A stretch of 64,000 bases of DNA, from the IMG/VR virus record IMGVR_UViG_3300044638_009648; one strand, given 5' to 3'. The stretch comes from a virus (lineage: Duplodnaviria; Heunggongvirae; Uroviricota; Caudoviricetes). The notes beneath the pieces are model-generated. The model worked only from the letters and a program-made list of their open reading frames with translations. It ran no database searches and was not told the origin of the DNA. Both the position numbers and the translations under genes were made by a program. Position 1 is the stretch's first letter, and every line of letters begins with the position of its first letter. This document shows, in pieces, positions 3,920 to 50,207 of the stretch.

Positions 3920-3920
3920 T

Positions 3921-4520: not shown

Positions 4521-4548
4521 TTCAAAAAAACTTTTCTACCTTCGTGGT

Positions 4549-24236: not shown

Positions 24237-26096
24237 ATGAAATTACTTAATATCTTAAATGGTACTCTTATAGTAGAGGTTTCTGAGAGCCTTAAGAAAA
24301 AGCTTTTGGATAAATTTAAACTTGAAACTCAAGACACTGAGAAAGATATTCTCGAATATATTGAGAGCTTCGAAAAATACCAACGGTCGCTTCCAGCTGA
24401 CCAGCGAGACATCACGCGTTACGATTTCAAAACTCTGAAGTCCTTAATTGACTCGATAGAAAATGGTAAAACTCGTAAAGCTGATGTGAATTCTGCGATT
24501 ACTAGTATAATCAAAAAAACACAGGAAAAAAAAGAAGTTTTTTCGTTACCAGAGTTACAGTTAGCGGTAAAAAAGTTTTTTGAAATTCAATCTGAAATAA
24601 AAGATGCTAACAAAGATATTAATAAGTTCAGTTATTTAAAACTCATACAATTTCTGGAAAAAAATTACGAGGACTTATTAACTCAGAAATTATTAAACAA
24701 ATTCAAACCGGAAAACCAAATTCTCACAAACGAGCAAATTTTATCTTATATTTCAGAATATATTGAAAATTTTAATGATATACCCTTTGATACGCCAGGT
24801 GCTGATTTAATGTCCTTTACCCAATTTGAACATTTAATTGATGCGATGATTGCAAAAAGAGGTCTTGGAAAAAAAACCAAAACTGAATTAAAAGATATTC
24901 CTCCTATCTATGATGATGGCGAAGACTTCAAAATTTATGCACCAACAGGAAAGGAACACTGTATCAAACTAGCCCATGGGCGTACTTGGTGTATTGGCTG
25001 GCTTGGTGGTCGAAACTTGTATTACAATTATCGAATAGGGAATGAAAGAACCATTTATTATGTTATAGACGAATCTTTAGACTACGAAGACCGTTATTTC
25101 GCAAATGTGATTTTGGTTGACCCAAGGGGTGGTACTTCTTTTGCTGACAAGACCAATTCTAGACCATTTGATGGCAGTGTGAATTTGCCTTGGGACGAAA
25201 TCTCTGGTTTCATTCCAAAGTTAAAAAATCTAAAAAATTTATTCGTTTCTAGACCCCTTAGCGAGGATGAAATCGAAATGCGGGACAGATATCAAAACAT
25301 AGAGTATGATAGACGTGGCAATAGAAGATTACCCAATAATCAAACCCCGATGGAATATTTTGATTCTCCAGAAAAGATTGCACAATGGATGGAAATTAAA
25401 GGGCCTGAGTTATTTGATGAAGATTACGCTAGTTTACCCCAAGAATTGAAAAAGAAGTACGTTGCTCTTGGATTTGATTTAACACCCGGTCAAATTGCTA
25501 CCTCTGAAGCTTCTGTTTTGAATTATTACGCTAAGAGAAAAATTGAGAATATTAAACAGAGCACTTTAAATAAGCTTGATGATGGTGATATTGCTTTATT
25601 AAATTCCCCAATTTTTAAGCAATTGAAACAGGAGTTGAAACCTCGTTTCAGTCAAGGTCTTTCAAGAAACTCAGACCCATCTGAATTTGAAGTACTTGGT
25701 TTTAGTAGAAACAGTGAAGTGGGTAAGTTTTTAAAGTTGTACAGTTTGGAAGACTTTATTGAATTCATCAATCCCAATGTAGAATCTATAACAATTCAAG
25801 GTGACGATTCTAATGTTAAAATCAAAATACCTAGAGCTATAGTTGAATTTAAAAATTTGGGAAGTTTAGTTTTGTCGAATGGTGTTATCGATGAAATACC
25901 GGACTACATTTGTGAACTCAAAAATTTGAAATTCTTAGGTTTACAGAATAATCCCGGAATCACTAGATTACCTGATTGTGTTGCAGATTTACCTTTACTT
26001 GAAATTCTAAATTTGCAAGGTTCGGATAATGTTGTTATTCCTGAATCAGTTAAAAATAGATTCTCAGAGGACTTAGGTCCTGGCATTTGGACGTAA
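24237..26096 (+). CDS. Paralog family member 3: WC-motif domain fused to C-terminal leucine-rich repeats
   Basis: HGRTWCIGWLGGRNLYYNYRIGNERTIYYVID core. LRRs: LGSLVLSNGVIDEIPDYICELKNLKFLGLQNNPGITRLPDCVADLPLLEILNLQG. Confidence 0.55.
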   Translation: MKLLNILNGTLIVEVSESLKKKLLDKFKLETQDTEKDILEYIESFEKYQRSLPADQRDITRYDFKTLKSLIDSIENGKTRKADVNSAITSIIKKTQEKKEVFSLPELQLAVKKFFEIQSEIKDANKDINKFSYLKLIQFLEKNYEDLLTQKLLNKFKPENQILTNEQILSYISEYIENFNDIPFDTPGADLMSFTQFEHLIDAMIAKRGLGKKTKTELKDIPPIYDDGEDFKIYAPTGKEHCIKLAHGRTWCIGWLGGRNLYYNYRIGNERTIYYVIDESLDYEDRYFANVILVDPRGGTSFADKTNSRPFDGSVNLPWDEISGFIPKLKNLKNLFVSRPLSEDEIEMRDRYQNIEYDRRGNRRLPNNQTPMEYFDSPEKIAQWMEIKGPELFDEDYASLPQELKKKYVALGFDLTPGQIATSEASVLNYYAKRKIENIKQSTLNKLDDGDIALLNSPIFKQLKQELKPRFSQGLSRNSDPSEFEVLGFSRNSEVGKFLKLYSLEDFIEFINPNVESITIQGDDSNVKIKIPRAIVEFKNLGSLVLSNGVIDEIPDYICELKNLKFLGLQNNPGITRLPDCVADLPLLEILNLQGSDNVVIPESVKNRFSEDLGPGIWT

Positions 26097-28917: not shown

Positions 28918-29247
28918 ATGTTTATTAAACCTCACCCCTACATAAAAAAAGTTGAAAGCAACTTAGATTTTATGTTCTCACTTTTCAGAGTGACCAATGT
29001 AAAAATTGAAAATACCCCAAGCTCAAAACACGAAATAGTTTATATTAATTCTGCTTATCCAGCCAAAGATTATAACGAAATTATTTACAAAACAGAGGGT
29101 GGAATCTATTTATTGTATAAGACAACAGGAAGTCCTGGCTATTATTCTCTGGAATGTTATTTTCCTGCTGATAAACATAACCAGGTTAAAATATTCCTTA
29201 ATTCAATTATTAAAAAAAATGACACAGTTAACAGCACAAGAAGTTAA
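28918..29247 (+). CDS. Hypothetical protein
   Basis: 109-aa ORF whose 3' end overlaps the thioredoxin start. Confidence 0.3.
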   Translation: MFIKPHPYIKKVESNLDFMFSLFRVTNVKIENTPSSKHEIVYINSAYPAKDYNEIIYKTEGGIYLLYKTTGSPGYYSLECYFPADKHNQVKIFLNSIIKKNDTVNSTRS

Positions 29248-29530
29248 AGAAAAAATTGAAAATAAAGAATCTTTCGTTTTGGATTTGTTTGCCACATGGT
29301 GTGGTCCATGTAAAGTATTGATGGGAAATCTTAACGCATTGGAAAAAAATAATAATGACCTTTCAATGCCAATTTATTCCTTAGATATTGATACTGATAG
29401 AGATTTTGTAATGGAGCTTGGTATTCGCTCTGTGCCTACACTTAAGATGTATAAGGGGGGGGAAGAAGTTTTCTCGAACGTTGGTGTTTTGAGTCAATCG
29501 CAACTCCTTGAAGTAATGGGTAGGTATTAA
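29219..29530 (+). CDS. trxA: Thioredoxin
   Basis: WCGPC active site (FATWCGPCKVL) and thioredoxin length. Start placed at the internal ATG (MTQLTAQEV). Confidence 0.8.
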   Translation: MTQLTAQEVKEKIENKESFVLDLFATWCGPCKVLMGNLNALEKNNNDLSMPIYSLDIDTDRDFVMELGIRSVPTLKMYKGGEEVFSNVGVLSQSQLLEVMGRY

Positions 29531-29812
29531 ATGGAAACCCATGTTATTGTCTTCACAATGAAAGGTTGTCCGCATTGTGATGATTTCAAAGAAATGTTAA
29601 AAAAAGAGGGTGTTGAGTTTATTGATAGAGATATTGAGATTCATAAAGAAGAGTATGATGTATTCGTTGAAGTAACTGAAAACGATTACGTTCCCGCTTT
29701 GCTTATTATTGAAGAAGAGGCAGAAAATCATAAATCTTTTTTGTATGCACCAGACCGTGATTACAACGAGCTCACGGAAGCTGTGGATATAATCAAGAAG
29801 CACATTAAATAG
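29531..29812 (+). CDS. Glutaredoxin/NrdH-like redoxin
   Basis: CPHC active site near the N-terminus (FTMKGCPHCDDFK); about 93 aa. Confidence 0.65.
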   Translation: METHVIVFTMKGCPHCDDFKEMLKKEGVEFIDRDIEIHKEEYDVFVEVTENDYVPALLIIEEEAENHKSFLYAPDRDYNELTEAVDIIKKHIK

Positions 29813-29889
29813 AATTTTAGGTTAATTCCAATTGTTTAAATTGGTTTGAAACCTATTAAATTAGTATTTATAGTATCCAAAGAAACTGA

Positions 29890-32800
29890 ATGCCTAGCAA
29901 TATAACTATATTTCCTAGTAACTTAGTTCCTCAACCTTTAAGGAGACCGAATATTGTTTTTGAATATTCAGTGTCAACGATGAAGCTTGAGGTTCTTTTT
30001 GCTGCGGCTATTCAAATTGCAAATCAACTCCTTATAGCACCACAATCTGGTTGTACTGAATTTTCAATTGCTGCGACGAGTAGTCCAAGTGCTACTGTTC
30101 AATATACTGATTGTAATACTGGAGAATCAAAATCTATTGTTGTTCCTAATGGTTCTACATGGTACCGATGCGCAAGAACTGGAACTGTTTCAACAACATC
30201 TGGAACTTCAACAAATACCAGCTTAGGTGCGTGTTACCCGAAAGTCCAAATTTATAGTGGTCTTACCGTTAACAATTATCTTAGCATTGGCGGAGTTCAA
30301 GTTTTAAACGGTACGGGAAATTGGTTAGGTCCGGGAACAAATATTACTGGAGCTCAAGGGGCTCAAGGAGCAACTGGCGCACAGGGAGCAACCGGCGCTC
30401 AAGGAGCACAAGGAGCTACAGGCTCACAAGGGGCAGTTGGGGTCCAGGGTGCTCAGGGGGGCACCGGAGCACAAGGCCCCAGGGGTAATCAAGGTGCTCA
30501 AGGCGCTATCGGTTCACAAGGAGCTACGGGAGCCCAAGGACTTCTAGGGACTACAGGCGCTCAAGGGGCAACTGGCTCCCAAGGAGCTACTGGAGCCCAA
30601 GGTCCTCGAGGGCCTCAGGGAGCAATTGGTGCACAAGGTGCTGTTGGTGCGCAAGGGACCCAAGGACCTAGAGGTAACCAAGGAGCTCAGGGTGCTGTGG
30701 GGTCTCAAGGTGCTACTGGAATCCAAGGTAGTAGAGGACCTCAGGGTGATTCAGGAGCCCAAGGTGCGCAAGGTGGTACAGGAGTACAAGGTCCTAGAGG
30801 TAACCAAGGTGTGCAAGGTGCTACTGGAGATTTGGGTGGACAAGGAGCCCAAGGTGCTGCTGGACCAAAAGGGGATGGTGGTGCGTCTGGAGCGCAAGGA
30901 GCTACAGGAGGTCAGGGTCCACGAGGTCCTCAAGGTGCTGTTGGTTCACAAGGTGCACTCGGAGCTCAGGGAGCTCAAGGAACTGTCGGCCCACAAGGAG
31001 CCCAAGGTGCCACGGGTGCACAAGGAGCCACCGGAGCCCAAGGTTCCAGAGGACCCCAGGGTGCCCAAGGAGCCCAAGGAGTGCAAGGTGCGGTCGGTGC
31101 CCAAGGCGATAAAGGGAATACAGGTGCTCAAGGTGCTCAAGGTGCCACTGGTGCTATTGGCTCACAAGGAGCTAGAGGACCGCAAGGAGCCCAAGGAGCA
31201 ATAGGTTCTCAAGGAGCCACAGGAGCACAGGGACCTAGGGGTCCTCAGGGTTCTATTGGCGCACAAGGAGCAACTGGACCAACTGGTGCCCAAGGCACTG
31301 TTGGACCTAAAGGAGAAGGTGGTGCCTCAGGAGCTCAGGGAGCCACAGGAGCACAAGGCTCAAGAGGAAATCAAGGGGTTCAAGGAGCCACAGGTTCTCA
31401 AGGAGCTACTGGAGCTCAAGGACAATTAGGTCCCCAGGGTGTACAAGGAGCAATCGGTTCCCAAGGTGCGACAGGAGCACAAGGTGCAAGAGGACCTCAG
31501 GGAGCTCAAGGCGCAACTGGAGCTCAGGGAGCAACTGGAGCGCAAGGGGCCAGTGGACCCCAGGGAGCTATAGGTATACAAGGAGCCACAGGAGCCCAAG
31601 GAGCTCAGGGAGCTCGAGGTCCACAGGGTTCTGTTGGTGCTCAAGGAGCACAGGGTGCTTTAGGTGCTCAAGGTGCTGCCGGTCCAAAGGGAGACGGCGG
31701 CGCAACTGGTTCTCAAGGAGCTACTGGAGCTCAAGGACAATTAGGTCCCCAGGGTGCACAGGGAGCAATCGGTTCGCAAGGTGCCACAGGAGCACAGGGT
31801 GCAAGAGGACCACAAGGAGCTCAAGGAGCTACGGGAGCTCAAGGAGCCACAGGAGCCCAAGGTTCAAGAGGACCCCAAGGAGCTATCGGTGCTCAAGGAG
31901 CACAAGGAGCCACAGGTGCTCAAGGTTCAAGAGGTCCGCAAGGTCCTGTCGGAGCCCAAGGAGCACAAGGAGCCACAGGTGCTCAAGGTTCAAGAGGTCC
32001 GCAAGGTGCCATTGGGTCTCAGGGTGCTACCGGCGGACAAGGGGCTCAAGGTGCTGCTGGTCCCAAAGGCGATGGTGGTGCATCAGGCGCAACTGGAGGC
32101 CAAGGAGCACAAGGTGCTAAAGGTCCTCAGGGTTCTAATGGCGCTCAAGGAGCCCAAGGAGCAACTGGTGCCCAAGGACCAAGAGGTCCCCAAGGAGCTA
32201 TCGGAGCCCAAGGTGGTACTGGTAACACAGGAGCTCAAGGAGCCAAGGGTCCGCAGGGTCCATTAGGCTCTCAAGGAGCAACGGGTAATACAGGAGCTCA
32301 AGGCGCTAGAGGACCTCAAGGAGCAACTGGTTTTGAGGGAGCAACTGGCTCAACAGGTGCTCAAGGTCCACGCGGACCTCAAGGTGCTGGCGGGTTTCAA
32401 GGTGCTACCGGAAATCAAGGAGCACAAGGGGCTGTTGGTCCAAAAGGCTCGGCCGGCGCTCCTGGTAATCCAGGTGCAACTGGCGCACAAGGAGCTAGAG
32501 GACCACAAAGTGATGCTGCCCCCGTTGCTGGAGCTCAAGGAGGTACTGGTGCGCAAGGCAGCAGAGGCCCCCAGGGCGCTCAGGGGGCCCAGAGTGGTAC
32601 AGGATTCCAAGGGGCACAAGGCGCTAGAGGTCCACAAGGAGCACAAGGAGCACAAGGTGCCACAGGGAACACAGGGGCTCAAGGGGCTCGAGGCCCTCAA
32701 GGAGGTAAAGGTGGCACAGGTCCAGTAGGAGCAATAGGTGCTCAAGGTTCCCGTGGTCCTCAAGGCCTAGTGGGTGCTCAGGGTGCTACTGGATTTTCAG

Positions 32801-33771
32801 GTGCACAAGGGGCAAGAGGTCCCCAAGGAGCAACAAATGGAGCTTTACAAGGTGCTACAGGAGCTCAAGGTTCCAGGGGACCACAGGGAGCTACAGGTTT
32901 TCAAGGTTTTCCTGGTTTTACTGGATTTCCGGGTGCCAATGGACCCCAGGGTGCTCAGGGAGCCCAGGGTGCTAGAGGTCCACAAGGAGCTCAAGGGGCA
33001 CGAGGTCCTCAAGGTGCACAGGGTGGCACGGGTCCTGTGGGTAACACTGGAGCAAGGGGTGCCCAAGGGGCAACGGGTAGTCAAGGATTCCAAGGAGCAC
33101 AAGGTTCTTTAATTCTTGGACCTCAAGGGGCACAGGGTGCCACAGGAGCTACCGGTGCTCAGGGACCCACTGGTCCAACCGCACCAAGTTGTGTTGCACA
33201 TTTTGTGTCTAACTGTTATAGTAGTGACGTGGATGCTTGTGGTGCGAAATCTCCAGGCGATTATCAAACGATTTATTCCCCTTGTGCTGTTTTGGCAAAC
33301 GGTTGCCGCCTTTGGGCAGACTCTTTATGTACAACTGGTTGCCCTTGTGACCCTGGGTTTGAATACATATCTGACGGTGTTAATGTTTGGTTAGTAGACG
33401 CTAACTGCGAATTAGCTAATGAGACACCCTGTACCTCTGTTTCTGATGGTAGATTAAAAACAAACGTGTTAACCATTGATAATTCTTTGGAATTATTGCT
33501 GAAGTTGGAACCTGTAGAATTTGATTGGAAAGAAATAACTCCGGAATACAAATATTTTGTGGAGAAAGGTATTACCCACTCTGTTGGGTTTATTGCTCAG
33601 CAAGTAAAAACTGTTGTTCCCGAAATTGTTCAAATGCGACCAAACGGATATTATACGGTTGATTACCCCCGAGTTAACGCTTTACTTGTTGAAGGTATAA
33701 AGGAACAACAAGTATTTATTGAGGACTTGGAAAAAGACATAACTGAACTTGAAAAATTATTTGAATTGTAA
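29890..33771 (+). CDS. Collagen-like fibre protein 1 (1293 aa) with Cys-rich module and C-terminal peptidase S74 intramolecular-chaperone domain
   Basis: About 940 residues of uninterrupted Gly-X-Y ([16 protein letters not shown]...). The C-terminus SDGRLKTNV ... [16 protein letters not shown] matches the endosialidase / tail-fibre auto-cleaving chaperone domain (S-D-x-R-L-K-x-N). Confidence 0.85.
30349..33180 (+). repeat. Gly-X-Y (GGN-GCN-CAR) triplet-repeat tract of fibre 1
   Basis: Direct 9-nt periodicity visible in the sequence. Confidence 0.9.
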
Positions 33772-36700
33772 TGGCTATTGATGTCATCATTTATCCCACT
33801 GGTGTGACTGGTAATGCAATCCCTCAAATTATTTTTGAGGATGCTGCTGGTGCCAAAATGGGTTTGATATATGAGGGGCCAAATTTAAGGTTTTCAGCTT
33901 CAACATCCATATCCTTGGTAACGGTAAGCCCAACGTCTGTTATTACTTCGGGTACTAGCGTTAGTAACGCCACAACTGGTATTTGGGCTGGGGAAACTTT
34001 GATGATTAACACCATTGGTGAATGGGTGGGACCACCCTTTAATATTCAAGGTTCTCAAGGAGCTCAAGGAGCAATAGGTTCCCAAGGAGCCCAAGGTGCT
34101 CAAGGAGCTCAAGGTGCTAAAGGAGCGCAAGGTGCCATAGGACCTCAAGGCGCCCAGGGTGCTCAAGGTGCTCAAGGCGCCCAAGGCGGTGTACAAGGTG
34201 CGCAAGGAGGCACTGGCGCTCAAGGAGCACAAGGTGCTCAAGGAGCACAAGGTGCTGTACAAGGAGCCCAAGGAGCTACCGGTGGCCAGGGAGCTCAGGG
34301 AGCACAGGGAGCACAGGGAGGTGTCCAAGGAGTCCAGGGTGCAACCGGAGCTCAAGGTGCCCAAGGAGCCGCTGGAACCCAAGGAGGAGTTCAAGGGGTG
34401 CAAGGTGCCACAGGAGGTCAAGGAGCTCAAGGAGCTACCGGTGCTCAAGGAGCAACTCAAGGTGCTATCGGTCCCCAAGGGGCACAAGGAGCACAAGGTG
34501 CCGCGGGAACTCAAGGTGGTGTCACTGGAGCTCAAGGAGCAAAAGGATTTCAAGGAGCACAAGGAGCACAAGGTGCCCAAGGTGGCGTCACTGGAGCCCA
34601 AGGAGCTCAAGGAGCGCAGGGGGCACAAGGTTCCCAGGGAGCTCAGGGTGCACCTCAAGGTGCTACAGGAGGTCAAGGTGCCCAAGGTGCACAAGGTGGA
34701 ATTGGTGCTCAGGGTGGAACTACTGGTGCCCAAGGTGCTCAAGGTGCTACAGGAGCTCAAGGTGCTACAGGAGCTCAAGGAGCAACTCAAGGTGTCCAGG
34801 GTGCCACAGGTTTTACAGGAGGTCAAGGTGTCCAAGGCGCACAGGGTGGTGTTCAAGGAGCCCAAGGTGCCATAGGAACACAAGGTGCTACTGGAGGTCA
34901 AGGAGCGCAAGGGTCTCCCACAGGAGGTCAGGGAGCTACAGGCTCACAGGGTGCACAAGGTTCTCAAGGGGCCCAAGGACTAGCAACAGGCTCTCAAGGG
35001 GCACAAGGTGCCCAAGGAGGACAAGGAGCTCAGGGAGCCCAAGGTGGCGTAACTGGAGCTCAAGGAGCTCAAGGAGCTCAAGGCGCTCAAGGTGCTATTG
35101 GTGCCCAGGGTGGTGTTGTCGGAGCCCAAGGTGCTATAGGAGCGCAAGGTGCTACGGGAGCTCAAGGTGCACAAGGTGGTGTTACAGGTGCTCAAGGAGC
35201 TACAGGCGGACAAGGAGCTCAAGGAGCAACCGGTGCTCAAGGATTACCTACAGGAATTCAAGGCACAACAGGCGCTCAGGGAGCTCAAGGTGCTACTGGT
35301 GCCCAAGGTTTACCCACAGGAGCCCAAGGTGCTCAAGGAGCCACTGGAGCTCAAGGTGCTACTGGTGCCCAAGGATTGCCCACGGGAAACCAAGGTGCTC
35401 AAGGTTCCCAAGGAGCACAAGGGGCTCAAGGTGCACAAGGTGGTGTAACAGGCGCTCAAGGAGCCCAAGGTGCCCAAGGTGCCACTGGTGCCCAAGGTGC
35501 ACAGGGTGGTGTCACTGGAGCCCAGGGCGGGACAGGTGGACAAGGAGCACAAGGCGCTCAAGGAGCCACAGGTTCTCCCCAAGGAGCTCAGGGAGTTCAA
35601 GGGGCTACTGGTGCCCAAGGACAAGTTGGTGCGCAAGGTTTACCCACAGGAGATACCGGAGGTCAAGGAATTCAAGGGTCACAAGGTGCCACTGGTGCCC
35701 AAGGCTCCGTACAAGGAGCCACAGGCTCTCAAGGTATTACAGGAGCACAAGGTGCCGTAGGAGCCCAAGGTGGTCCAACTGGAGCTCAAGGAGCCACAGG
35801 AGCACAAGGTGCACAAGGAGCCACAGGAGCTCAAGGAGGTATAACAGGTGCTCAAGGAGCACAAGGAGCCCAAGGAGCTCAAGGCGCAACGGGTGCTCAA
35901 GGAGGTCCAACAGGTTCTCAGGGTGCCCAGGGAGCTCAAGGCGCTCAGGGTGCCACAGGTGCAACTGGAGGTATTACTGGGGCCACAGGGGCACAAGGTG
36001 CTCAAGGACCCCAAGGTGCTCAGGGTGCCACAGGGGGCGTTACTGGAGCTACTGGAGCTACTGGTGCACAAGGACCACAAGGTGCTCAAGGTGCTGCTGG
36101 ATTACCCCAAGGCGCACAAGGACCACAAGGTGCTCAAGGTGCTCAAGGTGCTAAAGGAGCGCAAGGTGCCATAGAAGGTGCCGATGGTCTTCAAGGTTCT
36201 CAAGGACCCCAAGGAGCTCAAGGAGCTCAAGGAGGCGGAACAGGTGCTCAAGGCGCACAGGGACCCCAAGGAGCACAAGGAGCTACTGGTGCTCAAGGAG
36301 GACCTATGGGTGCCACAGGAGCACAAGGAGCACAAGGAGCACAAGGTGCCACAGGAGCGCAAGGTGCTGTCGTAGGTGCTCAAGGAAACACACCGTTTCC
36401 AGGCGCTACAGGAGGAACTGGAGCACAAGGATTGCCAACTGGAGGTCAAGGATTTCAAGGTAGCCAAGGATTTCAAGGAGCTACTGGTGCCCAAGGAGGT
36501 GCACAAGGAGCACAAGGAGCAATAGGAGCCCAAGGGGCTCAAGGAGCCACAGGGGCTCAGGGAGGCGTAACAGGTGCTCAAGGTGCACAAGGCGCACAAG
36601 GACCACAGGGTGCCACAGGTGCTCAAGGAGGCCCAACAGGAGCCCAGGGTTCTTTAGGTCCCCAGGGTGCACAAGGAGCACAAGGAGCGACAGGTGGTGT

Positions 36701-37358
36701 GACAGGTGCACAAGGTCCCCAAGGTGCACAGGGAGCACAAGGCCCCCAAGGGGAAAATAGTGCAACCCCTGGCTCACAAGGAGCTCAAGGTCAAGTAGGT
36801 GAATTACCTGGAGCACAAGGTGCATCCAATGCAACAACAGGAGCCCAGGGGGCTACACCTGGAGCAGGACCACAGGGAGCTCAGGGAGCACAAGGTTCTG
36901 AAGGTATAAAAGGACCCCAAGGTGCGCAAGGACCTAGTACAGGAGGGCCTCCAGGACCCCAAGGTGCCCAAGGAGCCCAAGGTGCACAAGGACCAACTGG
37001 ACCAACTGGACCACCCTCAGATTATAGATTAAAAACTAATGTTATCCCATTGACAAATGTTACAAGTAAAGTTATTGACATGCGAGGGGTCAAATTTGAA
37101 TGGCTAGAAAATATCCCCCAATTGGAACATATACCAGAAGCCCAACATTTTTATCTCAAGGGAAAAAGTATTGGATTTATTGCCCAAGAAATTGAAAAAA
37201 TATTTCCAGAATTAGTTTTGGAAGATAGATATGGGTATAAGAACATTCAGTACGATATTTTAGTTGCCATTGGCGTTGCTGCTGTAAAAGAAAATAATGA
37301 AAGAATTATTCTATTGAAAAATAAAATCAAACCCTTAAAATCATTTATAGGTGGCTGA
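33771..37358 (+). CDS. Collagen-like fibre protein 2 (1195 aa) with C-terminal S74 chaperone domain
   Basis: Gly-X-Y repeats with frequent one-residue register interruptions (GGVTG, GLPTG, GATQG). C-terminus [14 protein letters not shown] ... [16 protein letters not shown]. Confidence 0.85.
34048..37016 (+). repeat. Gly-X-Y triplet-repeat tract of fibre 2
   Basis: Seen directly in the sequence. Confidence 0.9.
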
Positions 37359-40300
37359 GAATATCATTATTTTTCCCGGAAGTGCTATGTTTGAATTTGT
37401 TGACTCTGGGTCAACAACTTCGAACTGGACTTTTATTGATTCAGGAACAGGATTGAGATTTCAGAATAATTCCTATGATTTATTAGACATTGTTGATAAT
37501 AGTATCAGCTTTAGAGTTAGATATGCCAATTTGTATGTAGATTCCATAACAAACAATTTTGGAAAAATTATTGATGGAACTGGATGGTTAGGAAACCAAA
37601 ACGCTGGGCCCCAAGGTGCACAAGGTGCTAAAGGACCAACTGGTGCAACTGGAGCAACTGGTGCGATAGGAAATATAGGTGCTCAAGGTGCTCAGGGGGC
37701 TACTGGTCCAACCGGAATCCAAGGGGCTACAGGAGCTCAAGGTGCTCAAGGATTTCAAGGAGCTCAAGGAGCTCAAGGTGCTAATGGAGCTCAAGGAGCT
37801 ACAGGACCACAAGGCGCTCAAGGGTTTCAAGGCGCTCAAGGGGCACAAGGAGCAATTGGTGCACAAGGTGCTCAAGGATTTCAAGGAGCTCAAGGAGCTC
37901 AAGGTGGTATTGGTTCCCAAGGAGCCCAGGGGGGTCAAGGATTTCAAGGAGCTCAAGGTGCTCAAGGCGCGGTAGGAGCTCAAGGAGCCCAAGGTGGTCA
38001 AGGATTTCAAGGTATAACCGGAAGCCAGGGAGCAGTTGGAGCACAAGGTGCTCAAGGAGGTCAAGGATTTCAAGGTGCCCAAGGAGCACAAGGTGGAACG
38101 GGAGCGCAAGGAGCGCAAGGAGCGCAAGGAGCTCAAGGTGTTTTGGGTATACAAGGGGCAGTCGGAGCCCAGGGCGCACAGGGAGGTCAAGGATTCCAAG
38201 GTGCTCAAGGAGCCCAAGGTGCAACTGGTGCCCAGGGAGCACAAGGAGGTCAAGGATTTCAAGGAAATATAGGTTCTCAAGGTTCAACTGGAGCACAGGG
38301 TGCTCAAGGTGGACAAGGATTTCAAGGAGCTCAAGGTGGTCAAGGATTTCAAGGAGCTCAAGGAGCCCAAGGAGCCCAAGGAGTCCAAGGTTCTGTGGGT
38401 GGACAAGGAGCGCAAGGAGCACAGGGTGCACAAGGAGGTCAAGGATTTCAGGGAGCAACTGGTGCCCAAGGAGCTATTGGTGCCCAGGGCGCACAGGGAG
38501 GTCAAGGATTTCAAGGAGCAACTGGTGCTCAAGGAGCTGTTGGTGCCCAAGGAGCACAGGGAGGTCAAGGAGCACAAGGAGTTTTAGGAACACAAGGTTC
38601 CGTTGGGGCACAAGGTGCCCAAGGTGCTCAGGGATTTCAAGGGGCTCAAGGAGTGCAAGGTGCTACAGGCGCCCAAGGAGCACAGGGAGGTCAGGGATTC
38701 CAAGGGGCACAAGGAGCGCAAGGTGCAGTAGGAGCACAAGGCGCACAGGGCGGTCAAGGATTCCAAGGTAATGTTGGTGCTCAGGGTGCGGTAGGAGCTC
38801 AAGGAGCTCAAGGTGGTCAAGGATTTCAAGGTGCTACTGGAGCCCAAGGTGCGGTAGGAGCTCAAGGTGCCCAAGGTGGTCAAGGATTTCAAGGAGCGCA
38901 AGGAGCAAATAGTGTAACTGGCGCACAAGGCGCACAGGGTGGTCAGGGTGCTCAAGGTATTCCTGGATTCCAAGGAGCCCAAGGCGCCACAGGAGCTCAA
39001 GGAGCTCAAGGATTCCAAGGCGCCCAAGGAGCTCAAGGAGCCGTCGGAGCACAAGGAGCACAAGGTGGACAAGGTTTCCAAGGTGGTACTGGAGCCCAAG
39101 GAGCAACAGGGGCACAAGGAGCCCAAGGTGGTCAAGGATTTCAAGGAGCCCAAGGGGCTCAAGGAGCAACAGGGGCACAAGGAGCCCAAGGTGGTCAAGG
39201 ATTTCAAGGAGCCCAAGGAGCCCAAGGAGCAACTGGAGCTCAAGGCGCTCAAGGAGGTCAAGGATTCCAAGGAGCCCAAGGAGCTACGGGGGCACAAGGT
39301 CCCGTTGGGGCACAAGGTGGTCAGGGAGCTCAAGGTGTGTTAGGTACTCAAGGTACTGTTGGTGCCCAGGGAGCACAAGGTGGTCAAGGATTTCAAGGTG
39401 TTGCTGGAAATACAGGTGAAGTTGGAGCACAGGGTGCTCAAGGCGCTCAAGGATTCCAGGGAGCCCAAGGAGCAGGCGGTGGTACTGGACCACAAGGTGC
39501 TCAAGGCGGTCAAGGATTCCAAGGAGCTCAAGGAGCTACAGGAGCTACAGGAGCGCAAGGGGCACAAGGTGGACAAGGTTTCCAGGGAGGTACTGGCTCA
39601 ACAGGTTCACAAGGTTCACAAGGAGCTCAGGGTGGACAAGGATTCCAAGGTCCTCCAGGTGATTCGGGAGGAACTGGCTCAGTTGGAGCTCAAGGTGGTC
39701 AAGGAGGGCAAGGACTTCCAGGAGTTACAGGACCACAAGGTTCACAAGGAGCTCAGGGTGGGCAAGGTTTTCAGGGAGCACAGGGGCCTATTGGTTCACA
39801 AGGTTCGCAAGGAGCTCAAGGTGGTCAAGGTTTTCAGGGTAATGTAGGTGCAACAGGCGCTCAAGGCGCTCAAGGTGCTCAAGGAGGTCAGGGATTCCAA
39901 GGAGCAACTGGAGCAGTGGGTCCACAAGGTGCGCAAGGTTCCCAGGGTGGACAAGGATTTCAAGGGGCTATAGGTTCCCAAGGGGCGACTGGAGCTCAAG
40001 GAGCCCAGGGAGCTCAAGGATTCCAGGGTCCACTGGGTGCTCAGGGTGCTACCGGGGTTCAAGGGGCTCAAGGTGGGCAAGGATTCCAAGGAGCACAGGG
40101 CACTCTAGGTCCGACAGGAGCTCAAGGAGCCACGGGTGCCCAAGGATTCCAAGGTGCCACCGGAGCCAAGGGTTTAGCGGGGTCAACCGGAGCACCAGGT
40201 TCACCAGGTCCTCAGGGAGCTCAAGGAGCTCAGGGAGCACAAGGATTCCAAGGTGCTCAAGGTGGCCAAGGATTTCAAGGTGCTGCTGGTGCAATTACTA

Positions 40301-40770
40301 TAGGAGCACAAGGCCAACAAGGAGCGCAAGGAGCCAAAGGAAGTGTAGACGGGGCTCAAGGTGCCTCTGGTGGTACAGCAACGGGTTTTCAGGGCGCGCA
40401 AGGAACAACAGGTCCAAGTGGAGCTCCAGGCCCAACGGGTCCCTCAGATTACAGATTGAAAAAAAATGTCGAAAATATTACTTCAGCACTAGACTTGGTT
40501 CAAAAACTTAGGGGTGTAAGATATAATTGGATACCTGGTATAAACAAAGATACTAGTGCTGTTGAAATTGGGTTTATTGCCCAAGAAATTGGTGAATATA
40601 TTCCTGAAGTTTTATTTGGTTCAGAAAATACACAATATGGTGTGAGATATAAGGAAGTTGTTGCTGTTACAATTGAAGCTATCAAAGAGCAAGAATCCAA
40701 AATCAGTGAACTTGAAAAGAGATTACAAGCAGTTTTGGATAAAGCACAACAAAAAGGTCTGATTATTTAA
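37351..40770 (+). CDS. Collagen-like fibre protein 3 (1139 aa) with C-terminal S74 chaperone domain
   Basis: Gly-X-Y repeats organised as a 7-triplet (21 aa / 63 nt) higher-order unit ...[13 protein letters not shown].... C-terminus [13 protein letters not shown] ... [16 protein letters not shown]. Confidence 0.85.
37603..40443 (+). repeat. Gly-X-Y triplet-repeat tract of fibre 3 (63-nt higher-order periodicity)
   Basis: Seen directly in the sequence. Confidence 0.9.
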
Positions 40771-44657: not shown

Positions 44658-45824
44658 ATGAAGATTAAATTAGAATATGTATGGCTTGACGGTTATTCCC
44701 CGGAGCCTAATCTTAGAAGTAAGGTTAAAGTAATAGACACACCTCACCAGGAAGGTAGAATTACCTTGGATGATTGCCCTGAGTGGAGCTTCGATGGTTC
44801 GTCAACGCGACAAGCTGAAGGCAAGTTTTCTGACTGCATTTTGAAACCGGTGAGAGTTTATGAAAATATCCTTAACAAAGGGTATTTGAAATCATACTTT
44901 GTTTTGTGTGAGGTTATGAACCCTGATGGTACGCCTCACATTACCAACACCAGAGCAAATGTGGGTGAAGAAGAAGTAGGTCTTTGGTTCGGTTTTGAGC
45001 AAGAGTATACCATCTACCAAAACGGTAGACCTCTAGGATTTCCCAAGAACGGTTATCCCGAACCCCAGGGCAAATACTACTGCGGTGTGGGCAACGGACA
45101 GGTTCACGGACGAGAGTTTGTTGACAATCACATGGAGATGTGCATCAAAGCTGGAATTGAAATCACCGGAACCAACGCAGAAGTGTTGCTAGGTCAGTGG
45201 GAGTTCCAGGTTTTCAGCAAAGGAAAACTCAAAGCTGGTGATGACCTTTGGATGGCTCGTTATATTCTCCTGCAGATGAGCGAAGAGTACGGATTCAAAA
45301 TCGAATTCCACCCCAAACCAGTACAAGGTGATTGGAATGGTTCTGGACTTCACTGCAACTTCTCTAATGATAGAATGCGTGAAGAGGGGGGTGAAGAATA
45401 CTTCAATAACATCTTCCGTTCTTTTGATGTGCGTCACCAAGAACACATCCAAAACTATGGTTCGGAAAACAACCTTCGTTTAACTGGTAAACATGAAACG
45501 CAATCCATTGACACATTCAGTTGGGGTGTTTCGGACCGTGGTGCTTCAATCCGTGTTCCACTAGCTACTTCTAAGGAATGGAAAGGATATGTTGAAGACC
45601 GTCGTCCAGCATCGAATGGTGACCCTTATAAGATTGTTCGTGTAATTGCTGAGGCTTTGGACTTTGCTCTGCAGTTGGACAAAATAAATCACACAATAAA
45701 CAGCAAGATTGATGTTGAAAAAGCTAAGGAAATGCTTGCTTTTCTTGGTATTAACTACAATTTAGATAACCGTCATGATTACGACGAAGAAGAGCGTACC
45801 ATTGATAATATTGGAAAGGAATAA
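44658..45824 (+). CDS. glnII: Glutamine synthetase type II (eukaryote-like GSII)
   Basis: Near-colinear match to GSII over the whole length: FDGSSTRQAEGKFSD ... LCEV ... FEQEYT ... GFPKNGYPEPQGKYYCGVG ... GTNAEV ... QWEFQ ... RLTGKHETQSIDTFSWGVSDRGASIRVP ... KGYVEDRRPASNGDPY. Confidence 0.9.
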   Translation: MKIKLEYVWLDGYSPEPNLRSKVKVIDTPHQEGRITLDDCPEWSFDGSSTRQAEGKFSDCILKPVRVYENILNKGYLKSYFVLCEVMNPDGTPHITNTRANVGEEEVGLWFGFEQEYTIYQNGRPLGFPKNGYPEPQGKYYCGVGNGQVHGREFVDNHMEMCIKAGIEITGTNAEVLLGQWEFQVFSKGKLKAGDDLWMARYILLQMSEEYGFKIEFHPKPVQGDWNGSGLHCNFSNDRMREEGGEEYFNNIFRSFDVRHQEHIQNYGSENNLRLTGKHETQSIDTFSWGVSDRGASIRVPLATSKEWKGYVEDRRPASNGDPYKIVRVIAEALDFALQLDKINHTINSKIDVEKAKEMLAFLGINYNLDNRHDYDEEERTIDNIGKE

Positions 45825-46453
45825 TGAGTAAACCTTATATTCAACAACATTTAACCTATACAGAAGACGGTAGGTTGATGGACGAGACCGGACAAGCGGT
45901 CATGATGGAATGGGAACGTCCCATAATGGCACAAGCCGCTGAGGTTATCTGCAGAAAAGGTGGTAGAGTATTGAACGTAGGTTTTGGTATGGGTATTATC
46001 GATACCGAAATTGAGAAGTATGAAATTCAAGAACATTGGATTATTGAACCTCACTTGGATGTGTTTACCAAGATGATGAATGATGGTTGGCATTTGAAAC
46101 CCCATGTGAGAATCCTGCATGGTGACTGGCAGTGGTTTATGAAATACCTTCCAGAGTTTGATGGGGTTTACATTGACACCTGGAACGAGGAGATTTATGA
46201 TTTTCTTCGCAACTCACCAGCATTTTTGAAAAAAGATGGTATTCTGTCGTTCTTCAACAATCCAAGAGCTGATGAGAAAGGTCTGCACATGACCCAGGAG
46301 CACTATGATATTTTAAACCCAATTTTCAATATTGAGTTTGAAACAATTCAACTTGAAGATATCGATGGACCTGAAATGCAAACTGCTGATGGTAGATACT
46401 ATTGGCATCCCGATTGGAAAACCTATTACTGTCCCATTTTAACTTTGAAATAA
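45824..46453 (+). CDS. Class-I SAM-dependent-fold protein with spermidine-synthase-like (aminopropyltransferase) architecture
   Basis: VLNVGFGMGIIDTEIEKYEIQEHWIIEPHLDV ... ILHGDWQWF ... FDGVYIDTWNE parallels vLiiGgGDGGvlREv ... EID ... gDg ... FDVIIvDSSDP. The Asp of the GGGDGG motif is absent. Confidence 0.45.
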   Translation: MSKPYIQQHLTYTEDGRLMDETGQAVMMEWERPIMAQAAEVICRKGGRVLNVGFGMGIIDTEIEKYEIQEHWIIEPHLDVFTKMMNDGWHLKPHVRILHGDWQWFMKYLPEFDGVYIDTWNEEIYDFLRNSPAFLKKDGILSFFNNPRADEKGLHMTQEHYDILNPIFNIEFETIQLEDIDGPEMQTADGRYYWHPDWKTYYCPILTLK

Positions 46454-48452: not shown

Positions 48453-48467
48453 TATCTTTGTAAGATG
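48453..48467 (+). promoter_or_regulatory. TATCTTTG-N4-ATG promoter/start arrangement
   Basis: Motif at 48453-48460, ATG at 48465 (RNA ligase). Confidence 0.5.
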
Positions 48468-49547: not shown

Positions 49548-49562
49548 TATCTTTGTTGTATG
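49548..49562 (+). promoter_or_regulatory. TATCTTTG-N4-ATG promoter/start arrangement
   Basis: Motif at 49548-49555, ATG at 49560 (phosphoesterase). Confidence 0.5.
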
Positions 49563-50207
49563 AAAATCGTATTAGAAAAAGGACAGGGTCTGTTTTTCAC
49601 ATCAGACACTCACTACAACCACGGGAACATTTGTCGTGCCACCACCAAATGGGTGGGTGCTGACAACCTGACCCGTGATTATAAGTCCTTGGACCATATG
49701 AACGATACGTTGGTGAATCGAATCAATGAGATGGTGGGTGAGAACGATATCTTGGTTCACTTGGGTGACTGGTCGTTCGGTGGATTTGAATCTATTGCTG
49801 AGTTCCGTAGTCGGATTCTTTGTAAGAACATTCACCTGACTTTCGGTAACCACGACCACCACATCCGTAGAAACAAGGGTGATATCCAAGACATCTTTTC
49901 ATCTTGTCAGGACTACCTTCACTTGGATATTCGCAAGCCCATGGGCAAAGAGGTTTTGAAATATTCGATGGTGTGTATGCACTATCCGATTGCCTCATGG
50001 GACGGAATGAATGACGGTGTTGTTCACCTTCACGGACACGTTCACCTTCCACCCAACCTTCGTATCAACGAGGGTAGAGCCATGGATGTTGGTGTTGATG
50101 GAAACGACCTTTACCCAATTTCTTTTGAGGAAATCCGAAACATTATGAAAGACCGTCCTTGCCGAAAATTGACTTTACCTAAAGACCACCACGAAAAAAG
50201 ATTGTAA
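49560..50207 (+). CDS. Calcineurin-like metallophosphoesterase (candidate 3'-phosphatase / 2',3'-cyclic phosphodiesterase)
   Basis: DTHYNHG, HLGDWSFGG, FGNHDHH, HLHGHVH motifs. Confidence 0.7.
   Translation: MKIVLEKGQGLFFTSDTHYNHGNICRATTKWVGADNLTRDYKSLDHMNDTLVNRINEMVGENDILVHLGDWSFGGFESIAEFRSRILCKNIHLTFGNHDHHIRRNKGDIQDIFSSCQDYLHLDIRKPMGKEVLKYSMVCMHYPIASWDGMNDGVVHLHGHVHLPPNLRINEGRAMDVGVDGNDLYPISFEEIRNIMKDRPCRKLTLPKDHHEKRL

Follow-up and report, generated by a model that had tools for sequence, protein, structure and literature searches.

Three paralogous giant collagen-like proteins with C-terminal Peptidase_S74 domains, probable fibres of a large freshwater phage

Three consecutive giant genes in a 64,000-nucleotide stretch of viral DNA (the window; IMG/VR record IMGVR_UViG_3300044638_009648) are likely to encode three paralogous homotrimeric collagen fibres, chaperoned by Peptidase_S74 domains and anchored by their N-terminal heads, of a large freshwater phage. 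The source of the DNA is most likely such a phage, as yet uncultivated; its best matches are uncultured phages of 484-735 kb, and its phage context genes include SbcCD, a primase, a sigma factor, Amidase_2, an RNA ligase and one tRNA. The first-pass annotation, made from the sequence alone, had described three giant genes of 1293, 1195 and 1139 aa, and both their coordinates and their lengths were reproduced exactly. The features of the array are as follows.

29846..29874, + strand, sigma-70-like promoter consensus match (TTGAAA-17-TATAGT), 15 nt upstream of the fibre 1 start
29890..33771, + strand, fibre 1 gene, 1293 aa (head, collagen domain, Cys-rich tip, S74 domain)
29890..30348, + strand, fibre 1 N-terminal head, aa 1-153, starting MPSNITIFP and ending [11 protein letters not shown]
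30349..33180, + strand, fibre 1 collagen domain, aa 154-1097, 309 triplets, 45 units of 21 aa
33181..33441, + strand, fibre 1 Cys-rich tip module, aa 1098-1184, 87 aa with about 10 Cys
33442..33768, + strand, fibre 1 Peptidase_S74 domain, aa 1185-1293, site SDGRLK
33771..37358, + strand, fibre 2 gene, 1195 aa
33771..34049, + strand, fibre 2 head, aa 1-93, from MAIDVIIYP to [11 protein letters not shown]
34050..37016, + strand, fibre 2 collagen domain, aa 94-1082, 305 triplets in 43 runs, 45 units
37017..37355, + strand, fibre 2 Peptidase_S74 domain, aa 1083-1195, site SDYRLK right behind GPTGPTGPP, no tip domain
37351..40770, + strand, fibre 3 gene, 1139 aa, GTG start
37351..37605, + strand, fibre 3 head, aa 1-85
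37606..40443, + strand, fibre 3 collagen domain, aa 86-1031, 313 triplets, 45 units of 21 aa
38752..38940, + strand, 189-nt segment of fibre 3 (3 x 63 nt, 63 aa), missing in frame from the near-identical assembly L011
40444..40767, + strand, fibre 3 Peptidase_S74 domain, aa 1032-1139, site SDYRLK right behind GAPGPTGP

The three genes are best read as one operon of old paralogues. The stop of fibre 1 and the start of fibre 2 share the overlap TAATG and fibres 2 and 3 overlap by 8 nt, which is consistent with an operon and with translational coupling, and no terminator-like site was found at either junction. For fibre 3 the GTG start is backed by its orthologues, in which the [10 protein letters not shown]-terminus is conserved. 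The promoter candidate upstream of fibre 1 agrees with the consensus at 10 of 12 positions and is a consensus match only; weak consensus matches on the + strand are also present inside the array genes. The GC3 of the array genes is 0.20-0.23 versus 0.31 in the neighbouring genes, and their codon usage is native.

The collagen domains span 944, 989 and 947 aa in fibres 1, 2 and 3, and all exceed the gathering score of the Pfam Collagen family (PF01391, cut-off 27.2 bits) with 400, 213 and 333 bits (E = 1e-122, 4e-64 and 1e-101). Together they hold 2,781 residues within triplets over a total span of 2,880, close to the 2,900 first estimated. The sequence is GAQ-rich and almost uncharged, with only 2-6% Pro; the Pro content climbs toward the C-terminus, where the last decile holds 11 of the 35 prolines of fibre 2. 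All three stalks follow a common plan of about 45 units, each of seven triplets: identity at a lag of 21 residues lies above that of triplet shuffles with z = 8 to 11, the first periodic mark falls in unit 3 in each protein, and the marks occupy the matching third of the unit. The same codon recurs between units about as often as in the shuffle expectation (0.41 versus 0.39, 0.454 versus 0.446 and 0.52 versus 0.46), i.e., synonymous sites have been randomised and the periodicity is kept at the level of the protein. The seven-triplet period is thus held by selection and not by recent duplication.

Within this plan the repeat grammars are distinct, as the first-pass annotation had recognised. 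Fibre 1 is nearly perfect Gly-X-Y, with a longest unbroken run of 240 triplets, and bears every 21 aa the mark (P/A/S)RGPQ, in its fuller form G(P/A/S)RG(P/N)Q, so that the Arg residues are spaced by 21 aa (12 times) or 42 aa (nine times), which accounts for the periodic PRGPQG seen before; GPKG(D/E)GGA repeats recur at intervals of 126-147 aa. In fibre 3 the mark is GGQGFQ every 21 aa, and 33 of its 38 Phe residues share one phase of the unit, in agreement with the proposed seven-triplet unit with one Phe. The single-residue breaks reported for fibre 2 number 38 (T in 23 cases and Q in 12), often with Gly-Gly just before them. They are strictly periodic: 37 of the 43 runs have exactly seven triplets and then one extra residue (random placement gave a mean of 2.5 such runs and a maximum of 13 over 20,000 trials), resulting in a period of 22 aa (66 nt). 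Neither this regularity nor the seven-triplet period of fibre 1 had been noticed previously.

At the other end of the stalks, Peptidase_S74 (PF13884) was found at the extreme C-terminus of each protein, where it scores 50.6, 45.7 and 50.9 bits (cut-off 22); the first-pass annotation had overlooked it in all three. The site S-D-x-R-x-K, a Ser with a Lys five residues on, is present in fibres 1, 2 and 3 and in all orthologues, and from the endosialidase literature we take this Ser and Lys to be the catalytic residues. Sequence matches of the domain in the PDB, both aligning at the SDxRxK of the fibres, are the C-terminal chaperone of S16 gp37 (6F45, with SDRRIK) and MYRF (7DC3). A tblastn search with the domain matched 540 phage records, mostly annotated as tail fibre, and the PHROG matches of the fibres were mainly to tail fibre and collagen-like minor tail families.

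The heads are divergent and related, as first proposed, with 25-28% identity, a common N-terminal strand MAxN(I/V)xI(I/F/Y)P and a G-x-W-x-G motif; that of fibre 1 carries a Cys-containing insertion relative to the other two. Neither the heads nor the fibre 1 tip had a match in the Pfam scan, and the heads had no PDB sequence match outside the collagen part. The AF2 model of the fibre 2 head is all-beta at low confidence (pLDDT 46), and that of the tip from the single sequence (pLDDT 38) is unusable. The Cys-rich module of the tip is real; it is 28-45% identical between orthologues, compared with 73-76% for the head and S74 domain of the closest orthologue (L001), and by these identities it evolves faster than its flanks. 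In all orthologues 83-87 aa lie between collagen and cleavage site in fibre 1, compared with 0 aa in fibre 2 and 2 aa in fibre 3, and the fibre 1 orthologues have a globular insert of 123-135 aa that fibres 2 and 3 do not have.

Based on this architecture, assembly would start with the trimerisation of three C-terminal S74 domains, which would fix the register of the chains beside the Pro-richest triplets; the triple helix would then zip in the N-terminal direction, and S74 would finally cut itself away at the Ser of SD(Y/G)RLK. Each fibre would be about 270 nm long, at about 6 nm per unit. In mature fibres 2 and 3 a small N-terminal head, rich in beta structure, would be followed by about 270-280 nm of bare triple helix, whereas mature fibre 1 alone would retain the 87-aa Cys-rich module as a distal knob, which is the best adhesin candidate of the array. 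The suggestion that the fibres diversified in receptor specificity is accordingly plausible for fibre 1 only, with its fast-evolving tip, since fibres 2 and 3 would have no C-terminal domain after the predicted cleavage. The heads probably dock the fibres to the particle.

The design of the array is shared by relatives. Two related lineages, L001 and L002, carry all three genes in synteny, as one-to-one orthologues that keep their grammars, and in a third (L102) genes like those of fibres 1 and 2 are adjacent and again keep theirs. Where orthologues of fibre 2 have lost a Gly (six triplets and four residues), the period of 22 aa is still kept. The idea that the grammars reflect ongoing diversification is therefore rejected. 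The family formed by the window and these three lineages has a motif head ending in G-x-W-x-G, GAQ-rich collagen and a C-terminal S74 domain, with stalks of about 39-49 seven-triplet units. The unit counts of fibres 1, 2 and 3 are 45.0, 45.0 and 45.1 in the window, 44.9, 44.8 and 45.9 in L001, and 48.7, 49.1 and 39.3 in L002; the two genes compared in L102 (fibre 1-like and fibre 2-like) have 43.7 and 42.8. A profile of the head found only 12 matches in 1.84 billion representatives, which, except for one, are truncated fragments, several of them visibly head plus GAQ collagen; the exception (P0005) consists of short repeated matches and appears unrelated.

The earlier remark that the array is exposed to recombination and contraction holds in part. 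No exact direct repeat is longer than 59 nt, and with randomised synonymous sites the array is poorly suited to recombination. Nevertheless, fibre 3 of L011 lacks exactly 3 x 63 nt, showing that unit-wise contraction does occur, although the boundaries of the missing segment share only 17 nt of exact homology.

Independent homotrimers would account for the matching unit counts of fibres 1 and 2 across lineages only if selection favours equal length. An alternative, which we regard as unlikely, is that the three proteins co-assemble, either in a heterotrimer or in a laterally registered bundle of homotrimers, with the extra residue of fibre 2 forming a conserved bulge. C1q A/B/C and type IV collagen are heterotrimers whose chains carry interruptions of differing length at matched sites, and here the adjacency and translational coupling of the genes would favour equimolar synthesis, the unit counts agree within a phage and co-vary from one phage to another, and all three proteins place their marks alike from unit 3 onwards. 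The co-variation, however, is drawn from only four lineages, and within these fibre 3 of L002 is 10 units below its partners; L011 lost three units in fibre 3 only. Moreover, the 87-aa tip of fibre 1 would bring its S74 domain out of line with those of fibres 2 and 3, and only the fibre 1 orthologues have the insert of 123-135 aa. Identity between the S74 paralogues is only 28-41%, and to our knowledge the S74 domains characterised so far are homotrimeric.

A counterpoint to homotrimeric virion fibres is the gene context. The flanking genes encode LRR proteins, DUF932, thioredoxin, glutaredoxin, a Gln-synthetase-like protein and unknowns, with no tail or baseplate module found among them, and the immediate neighbours (thioredoxin, glutaredoxin, DUF932 and unknowns) include no recognisable tail genes. 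A possible adhesin cluster, with a SprB-repeat protein and proteins of 734 and 1256 aa, lies at least 26 kb upstream. The three proteins could thus be non-virion products, released by lysis or displayed during infection, that build a collagen-like matrix outside the cells, alter the host cells or make them aggregate; fibres 2 and 3 would have no receptor-binding domain once cleaved, and the periodic Phe could promote self-association. This we hold to be improbable, and somewhat more so than co-assembly: as read by eye, the N-termini are unlike signal peptides or membrane anchors, the docking-like N-terminal motif is conserved and also occurs in another collagen-fibre lineage, L046 (hhalign probability 89%), and S74 is typical of viral fibres and spikes (PMC12220804).

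For fibre 2, the strictly periodic and conserved frame shift every 22 aa, often preceded by the turn-favouring Gly-Gly, might alternatively indicate stacked polyproline-II or polyglycine-II segments with GGxT turns in place of a triple helix. Gly-rich folds of other kinds exist in the snow-flea antifreeze protein and in the PGII sandwich of phage S16 gp38, and we know of no characterised precedent for a triple helix with 38 one-residue insertions. Such a fold is nevertheless very improbable, because the head, S74 domain and unit count are those of fibres 1 and 3, a chain reversal needs more than one extra residue, Gln at every Y position would be expected to crowd a PGII sheet, and the Pfam Collagen match is strong. 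Finally, that the array is an artefact of collapsed or chimeric repeats is scarcely credible: many related contigs do stop within or beside it, and large protein collections hold only truncated fragments of these proteins, but its full 10,881 nt differ by one base across three independent assemblies from different samples and pipelines, two more assemblies that cover part of it differ at 3-8 bases, and it has intact reading frames, no exact repeat beyond that of 59 nt, and synteny in diverged relatives.

The favoured homotrimeric fibres share their C-terminal S74 domain, the Ser-x4-Lys of SDxRxK and the expected role of trimerisation followed by self-cleavage with phage fibres and spikes such as the K1F endosialidase, T5 pb1, S16 gp37 (6F45) and GA-1 gp12. 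The shafts of these are triple beta-helices or otherwise beta-structured, in contrast to some 300 collagen triplets here, and in fibres 2 and 3 nothing globular stands between stalk and cleavage site. Polinton-like viruses and virophages also join collagen repeats to a C-terminal endosialidase chaperone (S74) in their fibre proteins, which have one or two Pfam collagen domains and in some cases an N-terminal domain of the adenovirus type (PMC12220804). Both groups, however, are small eukaryotic viruses, whereas the phage stalks are three to ten times longer, belong to three paralogues with periodic marks and carry heads of another family with no Pfam match. The proteins EPclA-D of E. coli O157 and the PHROG "collagen like minor tail" families likewise build a trimeric phage fibre on a Gly-X-Y shaft; the domains PfN (PF08400), Pf2 (PF03406) and PfC (PF06820) of EPclA-D were absent from Pfam scans of the proteins, heads and tip. 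"Bacteriophage collagen", the subject of Smith et al. in 1998, reportedly concerns collagen-like tail fibre proteins of phages, and we know of no seven-triplet super-period or periodic interruption described for the collagens of cultured phages or prophages.

Outside the phages, Bacillus BclA of the exosporium nap, C. difficile BclA and Pasteuria Pcl also combine an N-terminal anchor, a Thr/Gln-rich and Pro-poor collagen filament and a C-terminal trimerisation nucleus, and form hair-like layers. Their stalks are cellular and much shorter, and their C-terminal domain is C1q/TNF-like and retained, whereas here it is S74, with no C1q match in the Pfam scan, and its removal is predicted. Mimivirus resembles this phage in having tandem collagen-like genes (for example R239-R241) and a very large genome; it also has the collagen-modifying enzyme L230, but it is a eukaryotic virus, no hydroxylase was found in the window, and neither an S74 domain nor a head of similar kind is known to us from Mimivirus collagens. 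In L046, a related phage lineage, the collagen genes adjoin those for a 2OG-Fe(II) oxygenase and for an enzyme containing GT25. Type IV collagen and the kink of C1q resemble fibre 2 in having non-triplet interruptions, often hydrophobic, inside a triple helix, but these are irregular in spacing and length, unlike an extra residue every seven triplets, repeated some 38 times and conserved across lineages.

Collagen on this scale was first called exceptional for a phage. This is true relative to cultured phages and prophages, as the longest collagen domain of E. coli prophages has 322 aa with a single interruption (PMC3368898), but not relative to uncultivated viral contigs, in which giant collagen ORFs are frequent: IMG/VR holds at least 120 stretches with at least 65 uninterrupted triplets and at least 13 ORFs with at least 300 triplets, counts that are lower bounds. 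The kind of fibre, collagen with S74, is already known, and its size and strictly periodic design are unusual. Published host-guest peptide propensities make a gradient of stiffness among the fibres plausible, in line with the diversification in stiffness first suggested. The marks of fibre 1 would act as stabilising GPR-GPQ clamps, Gly and Phe in X positions of fibre 3 could form a soft and/or sticky ring, and the one-residue insertion of fibre 2 could make a regular bulge or kink. The marks would thus probably give the phage fibres of equal design that differ in stiffness or lateral stickiness.

The operon of three giant collagen-like fibre genes, each ending in an S74 chaperone, is real, robust and conserved, and it is laid out as follows:

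29890-33771, + strand, F1 gene, 1293 aa
33771-37358, + strand, F2 gene, 1195 aa
37351-40770, + strand, F3 gene, 1139 aa, GTG start

The ORF listing thus bears out the coordinates and lengths of the three consecutive, overlapping genes proposed in the first-pass annotation. At the F1/F2 junction (TAATG) one base is common to the F1 stop and the F2 start, F3 overlaps the end of F2 by 8 nt, and its GTG start is supported by the conservation of the N-terminus MAENIIIFP in its orthologues. A promoter-like site lies 15 nt upstream of the F1 start, no terminator-like site was found at the F1/F2 or the F2/F3 junction, and weak + strand promoter consensus matches occur inside F1 and F2. The numerous alternative-frame and minus-strand ORFs of 108-336 aa within the array (30626-40000, both strands) were rejected as genes, being by-products of the stop-poor repeat. 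The jump in GC content, from about 0.35 in the surroundings to 0.50-0.59 across the array, hinted at horizontal acquisition, which was rejected: the rise comes only from the Gly, Ala and Gln codons, and since GC3 is low in the collagen parts (0.20-0.23, versus 0.31 in ten neighbouring genes) and the preferences for A/T-ending codons are alike, the genes are native to this genome.

Each protein consists of an N-terminal head (153 aa in F1, 93 aa in F2 and 85 aa in F3), a collagen domain and an S74 domain, to which F1 adds a fourth part, an 87-aa tip with about 10 Cys between collagen and S74; F1 is also the only Cys-rich fibre (14 Cys). The heads begin with M-(A/P)-x-N-(I/V)-x-I-(I/F/Y)-P, end with G-x-W-(L/V)-G directly before the first triplet and are 25-28% identical between paralogues, in agreement with the earlier view that they are divergent but related. 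Direct counting gave 309 Gly-X-Y triplets in F1, 305 in F2 and 313 in F3, within collagen domains spanning 944, 989 and 947 residues that match Pfam Collagen at E = 1e-122, 4e-64 and 1e-101, so that all three proteins do consist mostly of such triplets. The first-pass annotation did not contain the S74 domain, yet all three C-termini match Peptidase_S74 "chaperone of endosialidase" at 46-51 bits (cut-off 22), starting with SDGRLK or SDYRLK. From the endosialidase literature, we take the Ser of this motif to be both the nucleophile and the cleavage site, with the Lys five residues on as its partner. The motif aligns to SDRRIK of the C-terminal chaperone of phage S16 gp37 (PDB 6F45), and the domain also matches MYRF (PDB 7DC3). 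Proline rises toward the C-terminus (11 of the 35 prolines of F2 are in the last decile), and the Pro-richest triplets of F2 and F3 ([17 protein letters not shown]) directly abut the S74 Ser; judged by this sequence, both fibres would keep no C-terminal globular part after cleavage, and the same holds for every orthologue.

A super-period of seven triplets is common to all three stalks. Autocorrelation peaks at 21, 22 and 21 aa in F1, F2 and F3, respectively, and at 63, 66 and 63 nt in their DNA, and when the sequences are laid out in period-long rows the register is kept for about 40 units. Within each unit stands a mark that differs between the fibres:

F1 unit: G(P/A/S)R-G(P/N)Q-Gxx-GxQ-GAx-Gxx-GAQ, with 22 of 28 Arg in one phase
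F2 unit: seven triplets followed by a single added residue (23 T, 12 Q), with 37 of 43 runs exactly seven triplets long
F3 unit: [17 protein letters not shown](V/T)-GAQ, with 33 of 38 Phe in one phase

The 7-triplet (63-nt) unit that had been noticed in F3 is therefore confirmed by both of its autocorrelation peaks, and the single-residue register breaks noticed in F2 proved not only real but periodic; the extra residue usually stands in the contexts GG(V/P/I)T, GLPT or GA(V/T)Q. Against 1,000 triplet shuffles, identity at lag 21 was higher, with z = 8.4 to 10.6, and F2 breaks placed at random gave a mean of 2.5 runs of seven and a maximum of 13 in 20,000 trials. The first mark falls in the third unit in F1, F2 and F3 alike, and the stalk length divided by the protein's own period is 44.95, 44.95 and 45.1 units. 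With the collagen triple-helix rise of 0.286 nm per residue, the stalks would measure about 270 nm (F1), 283 nm (F2) and 271 nm (F3).

Such a period could be left behind by recent tandem amplification, an explanation that was rejected by synonymous randomisation. For pairs of units that agree in the amino acid at a position, the codon was also the same with a frequency of 0.41 in F1 (codon-shuffled control 0.39 ± 0.017), 0.454 in F2 (0.446 ± 0.018) and 0.52 in F3 (0.464 ± 0.016), i.e., about as often as in the shuffles, and the period is therefore selected rather than a relic of recent duplication. The DNA of different units is just 60-70% identical, and exact direct repeats in the 10.9-kb array reach no more than 59 nt. 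The only clearly recent duplication, and the one exception to the rejection, is a local one of 315 nt (5 units) in F1 at 31393-31989, with 84% matches. Each mark recurs about 40 times and is maintained by selection.

The three fibres are conserved in architecture and periodicity. Two related IMG/VR contigs, L001 and L002, have the flanking genes and the three-gene order of the window, with F1, F2 and F3 orthologues of 1411, 1192 and 1156 aa in L001 and of 1501, 1288 and 1007 aa in L002; in a third contig, L102, an F1-like and an F2-like gene are adjacent. Orthology is one-to-one: heads are 42-73% identical between orthologues versus 21-31% between paralogues, and S74 domains 44-80% versus 28-41%, and since orthologues are closer than paralogues the triplication predates these lineages. 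The grammars are conserved as well, with RGPQ in the F1 and GGQGFQ in the F3 orthologues, while the 22-aa period of the F2 orthologues survives even the loss of a Gly (6 triplets + 4 residues, e.g., SSVQ). The F1 tip is 28-45% identical between orthologues, whereas the flanking head and S74 of the closest orthologue, L001, reach 73-76%; by sequence the tip would behave like a fast-evolving adhesin. The F1 orthologues of L001 (2253-6488) and L002 (5494-9999) have an extra globular insert of 123-135 aa after about seven triplets (GGGQPTIYGP...NAAVGAQG) that is absent from the F1 of the window. Pfam scans of the heads, the F1 tip and this insert gave no match even at E <=1, and a PDB profile search with the heads matched collagen segments only; the top PDB match, the "spindle/axial fibril" 8ZXL, was rejected as a viral relative, as it comes from a study of recombinant collagen assembly (PMC13377044). 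AF2 models of the F2 head (10-sequence alignment, pLDDT 46) and of the F1 tip with S74 (single sequence, pLDDT 38) were too poor to use.

The number of units, rather than of residues, is equal in F1 and F2 within each of four lineages, and it varies between lineages.

Units per stalk in the four lineages
Window: F1 45.0, F2 45.0, F3 45.1
L001: F1 44.9, F2 44.8, F3 45.9
L002: F1 48.7, F2 49.1, F3 39.3
L102: F1 43.7, F2 42.8; F3 lies outside the fetched stretch

The F3 count agrees with those of F1 and F2 in the window and in L001, but not in L002. The matched counts, which from four lineages are a lead and not a result, could reflect selection for equal physical length, with the extra residue of F2 bulging out, or else unit-by-unit lateral alignment or a heterotrimer. 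A simple F1/F2/F3 heterotrimer could account for the equal counts, but the tip between collagen and S74 is found in F1 only, as is the globular insert of L001 and L002, and the F3 of L002 is short. We regard as improbable the more specific reading that the 7-triplet unit (~6 nm, the 7/2 helix repeat) is a register that aligns F1, F2 and F3 unit by unit in a heterotrimer or registered bundle, with the extra residue of F2 as a regular bulge. If true, a natural collagen would here, for the first time, have strictly periodic +1 interruptions, and the result would be a new collagen super-structure, e.g., a regularly kinked or supercoiled filament of ~270 nm.

Judging from the behaviour of S74 domains and from collagen folding, the fibres would be trimers that are cleaved, and F2 would be triple-helical in spite of its interruptions. 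The S74 domains of three chains would trimerise first and set the one-residue stagger beside the Pro-richest triplets; the triple helix would then zip toward the N-terminus and the chaperone cut itself off, in a role akin to that of the removable procollagen C-propeptide. Docking is likely the task of the head, whose N-terminal strand is conserved; the first ~30 residues of the head are shared with the heads of L046, a separate Pro-rich phage collagen lineage (hhalign probability 89%). The host-guest peptide data of Persikov and Brodsky reportedly place Arg in Y and Pro in X as most stabilising in the absence of hydroxyproline, with Ala in X and Gln in Y as good neutral choices and Gly and Phe in X among the worst. 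By analogy the periodic marks probably set the fibre mechanics: F1 would be periodically clamped, F2 periodically broken and F3 periodically softened, three exposed Phe forming a ring at every 6 nm; the predicted order of stability is F1 > F3 > F2. Seven triplets are the exact repeat of the 7/2 collagen helix, and the marks would line up along one face if the helix is 7/2, the true symmetry of a Pro-poor helix being uncertain.

A collagen-like phage fibre with S74 is of an already known kind. Collagen-like shafts were described in phage fibres as early as 1998, several PHROGs families ("collagen like minor tail" and tail fibre) are matched by F1-F3, and the combination of collagen with S74 was described for polinton-like viruses (PMC12220804). 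The cultured cyanophage S-SCSM1 gave the best S74 match; its fibre is not collagen-like and was rejected as a collagen-like relative. What sets F1-F3 apart is the size, the conserved 7-triplet super-period, the strictly periodic +1 interruption, the head family without Pfam or PDB sequence match, and the fact that F2 and F3 lack any domain at the distal end. The first-pass annotation had called the scale of the collagen exceptional, and this stood only in part: each stalk is about three times as long as the longest collagen domain of E. coli prophages, 322 aa (PMC3368898), but a scan of IMG/VR for at least 65 uninterrupted GGN-NNN-NNN codons gave at least 120 matches, and among the matches listed at least 22 ORFs had 250 triplets or more and at least 13 had 300 or more. 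Among the matches listed, the head motif was present in 5 of 129 ORFs and an S74-like site in 12 of 129. Other periodic non-triplet units were found in L034 (17 aa) and L062 (14 aa), some of which are possibly not collagen. The L046b protein, which has an S74 domain, is built of 10 triplets plus "PQ" (32 aa), and this 10-triplet + 2-residue period could point to a design principle, so far undescribed, that is general among viral collagen fibres. The collagen array of L046 (IMGVR_UViG_3300046010_015054, minus strand, ~2729-5736) is also flanked by a 2OG-Fe(II) oxygenase (PF13640) and by a protein of 795 aa in which both GT1 and GT25 domains occur, a pair that resembles the collagen hydroxylase/glycosyltransferase pairs of the Mimivirus L230 kind.

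Assembly error as the source of the array is effectively excluded by near-identical independent assemblies. The exact F2 protein is encoded on at least eight contigs (NCBI, JGI and ENA assemblies), and across its full 10,881 nt the array is identical save for a single base in three of these assemblies, with 3-8 differing bases in two partial ones. In L011 (ERZ27272048 k141_128433), F3 is without exactly 189 nt in frame, i.e., three 63-nt units (window 38752-38940), which is probably a real variant because the 17-nt exact homology at the boundaries is too little for a collapse by a k = 141 assembler. Contigs of related phages (L019-L024) very frequently break off within the collagen array or at its edge, and large protein collections hold only cut-off heads or S74 ends of these proteins (P0001-P0028). 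The locus is a systematic break point of metagenome assembly, and the family is therefore under-represented in protein databases. A head profile gave just 12 matches among 1.84 billion representatives; P0005 aside, they are truncated fragments, several visibly head plus GAQ collagen, and the short repeated matches of P0005 appear unrelated. An S74-based search of a large protein collection returned only contig-end fragments of 93-197 aa, exact look-up there found none of F1, F2 and F3, and a word-indexed homologue search with the F2 head gave no match; the collection evidently lacks these full-length low-complexity proteins. The array flanks had no DNA similarity match among 50,697 phage records, tblastn with the F1 head against phages gave none, tblastn with an F1 collagen segment gave none either (for which the low-complexity filter of BLAST is suspected), and the F3 head had no match in IMG/VR.

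The array lies outside any recognisable tail module, among the following features:

42-1700, SprB-repeat protein
1715-3919, 734-aa protein without family match
22781-24202 and 24237-26096, two adjacent C-terminal leucine-rich-repeat proteins, whose position upstream of the array is conserved among relatives
29099-29530 and 29531-29812, thioredoxin and glutaredoxin, directly upstream of F1
44658-45824 and 45824-46453, glutamine-synthetase-like gene, then a guanidinoacetate N-methyltransferase-like Pfam match
48465-49538, 49560-50207 and 50212-50631, RNA ligase (T4 Rnl1-type), metallophosphoesterase and AAA_33 kinase-like protein
57613-58860, 58853-60013 and 59991-61103, GT2, GT2 and UDP-galactopyranose mutase in a row

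Together with a 1256-aa protein just upstream of the window (L014, 3645-7415), in which Cys-containing modules are joined by (Pro-Thr)n linkers, the SprB-repeat and 734-aa proteins may be an adhesin or fibre cluster of the phage. Thioredoxin and glutaredoxin genes usually serve nucleotide reduction; here they could be tied to the disulfide handling of the F1 head and tip, or their position could be coincidence. The same pairing with F1 is seen in the near-identical contigs L008-L010 and L013. The glutamine-synthetase-like and guanidinoacetate N-methyltransferase-like genes are an unusual metabolic pair for a phage, and the row of RNA ligase, metallophosphoesterase and AAA_33 looks like an RNA repair set. 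From its genes the phage may make galactofuranose-containing glycans, for which the collagen stalks, rich in Thr with 40-61 Thr per stalk in the Y position, are conceivable targets; further sugar-modifying genes (GT1, methyltransferases, DegT- and PglD-like) lie upstream of the window in L014 and L015. The window also encodes a RuvC-like nuclease, a primase-like protein, SbcD/SbcC, a sigma-70-type factor, Amidase_2, a DnaJ-like protein, a DUF932 protein, one tRNA-Met and a Y-family polymerase. The best matches of the SbcC-like protein are in uncultured phages of 484 and 735 kb, and an identical DUF932 protein is found on a contig of 0.2-1 Mb; the source is a large uncultivated phage that occurs in many metagenome samples, among them lake samples such as JGI 3300002835 and 3300034062 and ENA ERZ27272042, and the SprB repeat hints at a possible Bacteroidota host.

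To our knowledge, collagen biophysics lacks a natural, evolutionarily tuned series of one scaffold with different periodic perturbations. F1-F3 are such a series, with the same length, unit and flanking domains and with differing marks: F1 has a putative stabilising clamp, F3 a putative soft spot of Gly/Phe and F2 an insertion of one residue. Short constructs of a few units, with S74 as a removable trimerisation tag, could reveal what the marks do to stability, bending and self-association, and might also be of use as modules for collagen design that do without hydroxyproline. It is chiefly through its selected periodic design, and through unit counts that match, that the array is relevant to structural biologists of collagen and of phages. 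Filaments about twice the length of the T4 long tail fibre may occur on some large freshwater phages. With a knob on only one of the three filaments, the bare collagen threads might serve capture, spacing or entanglement.
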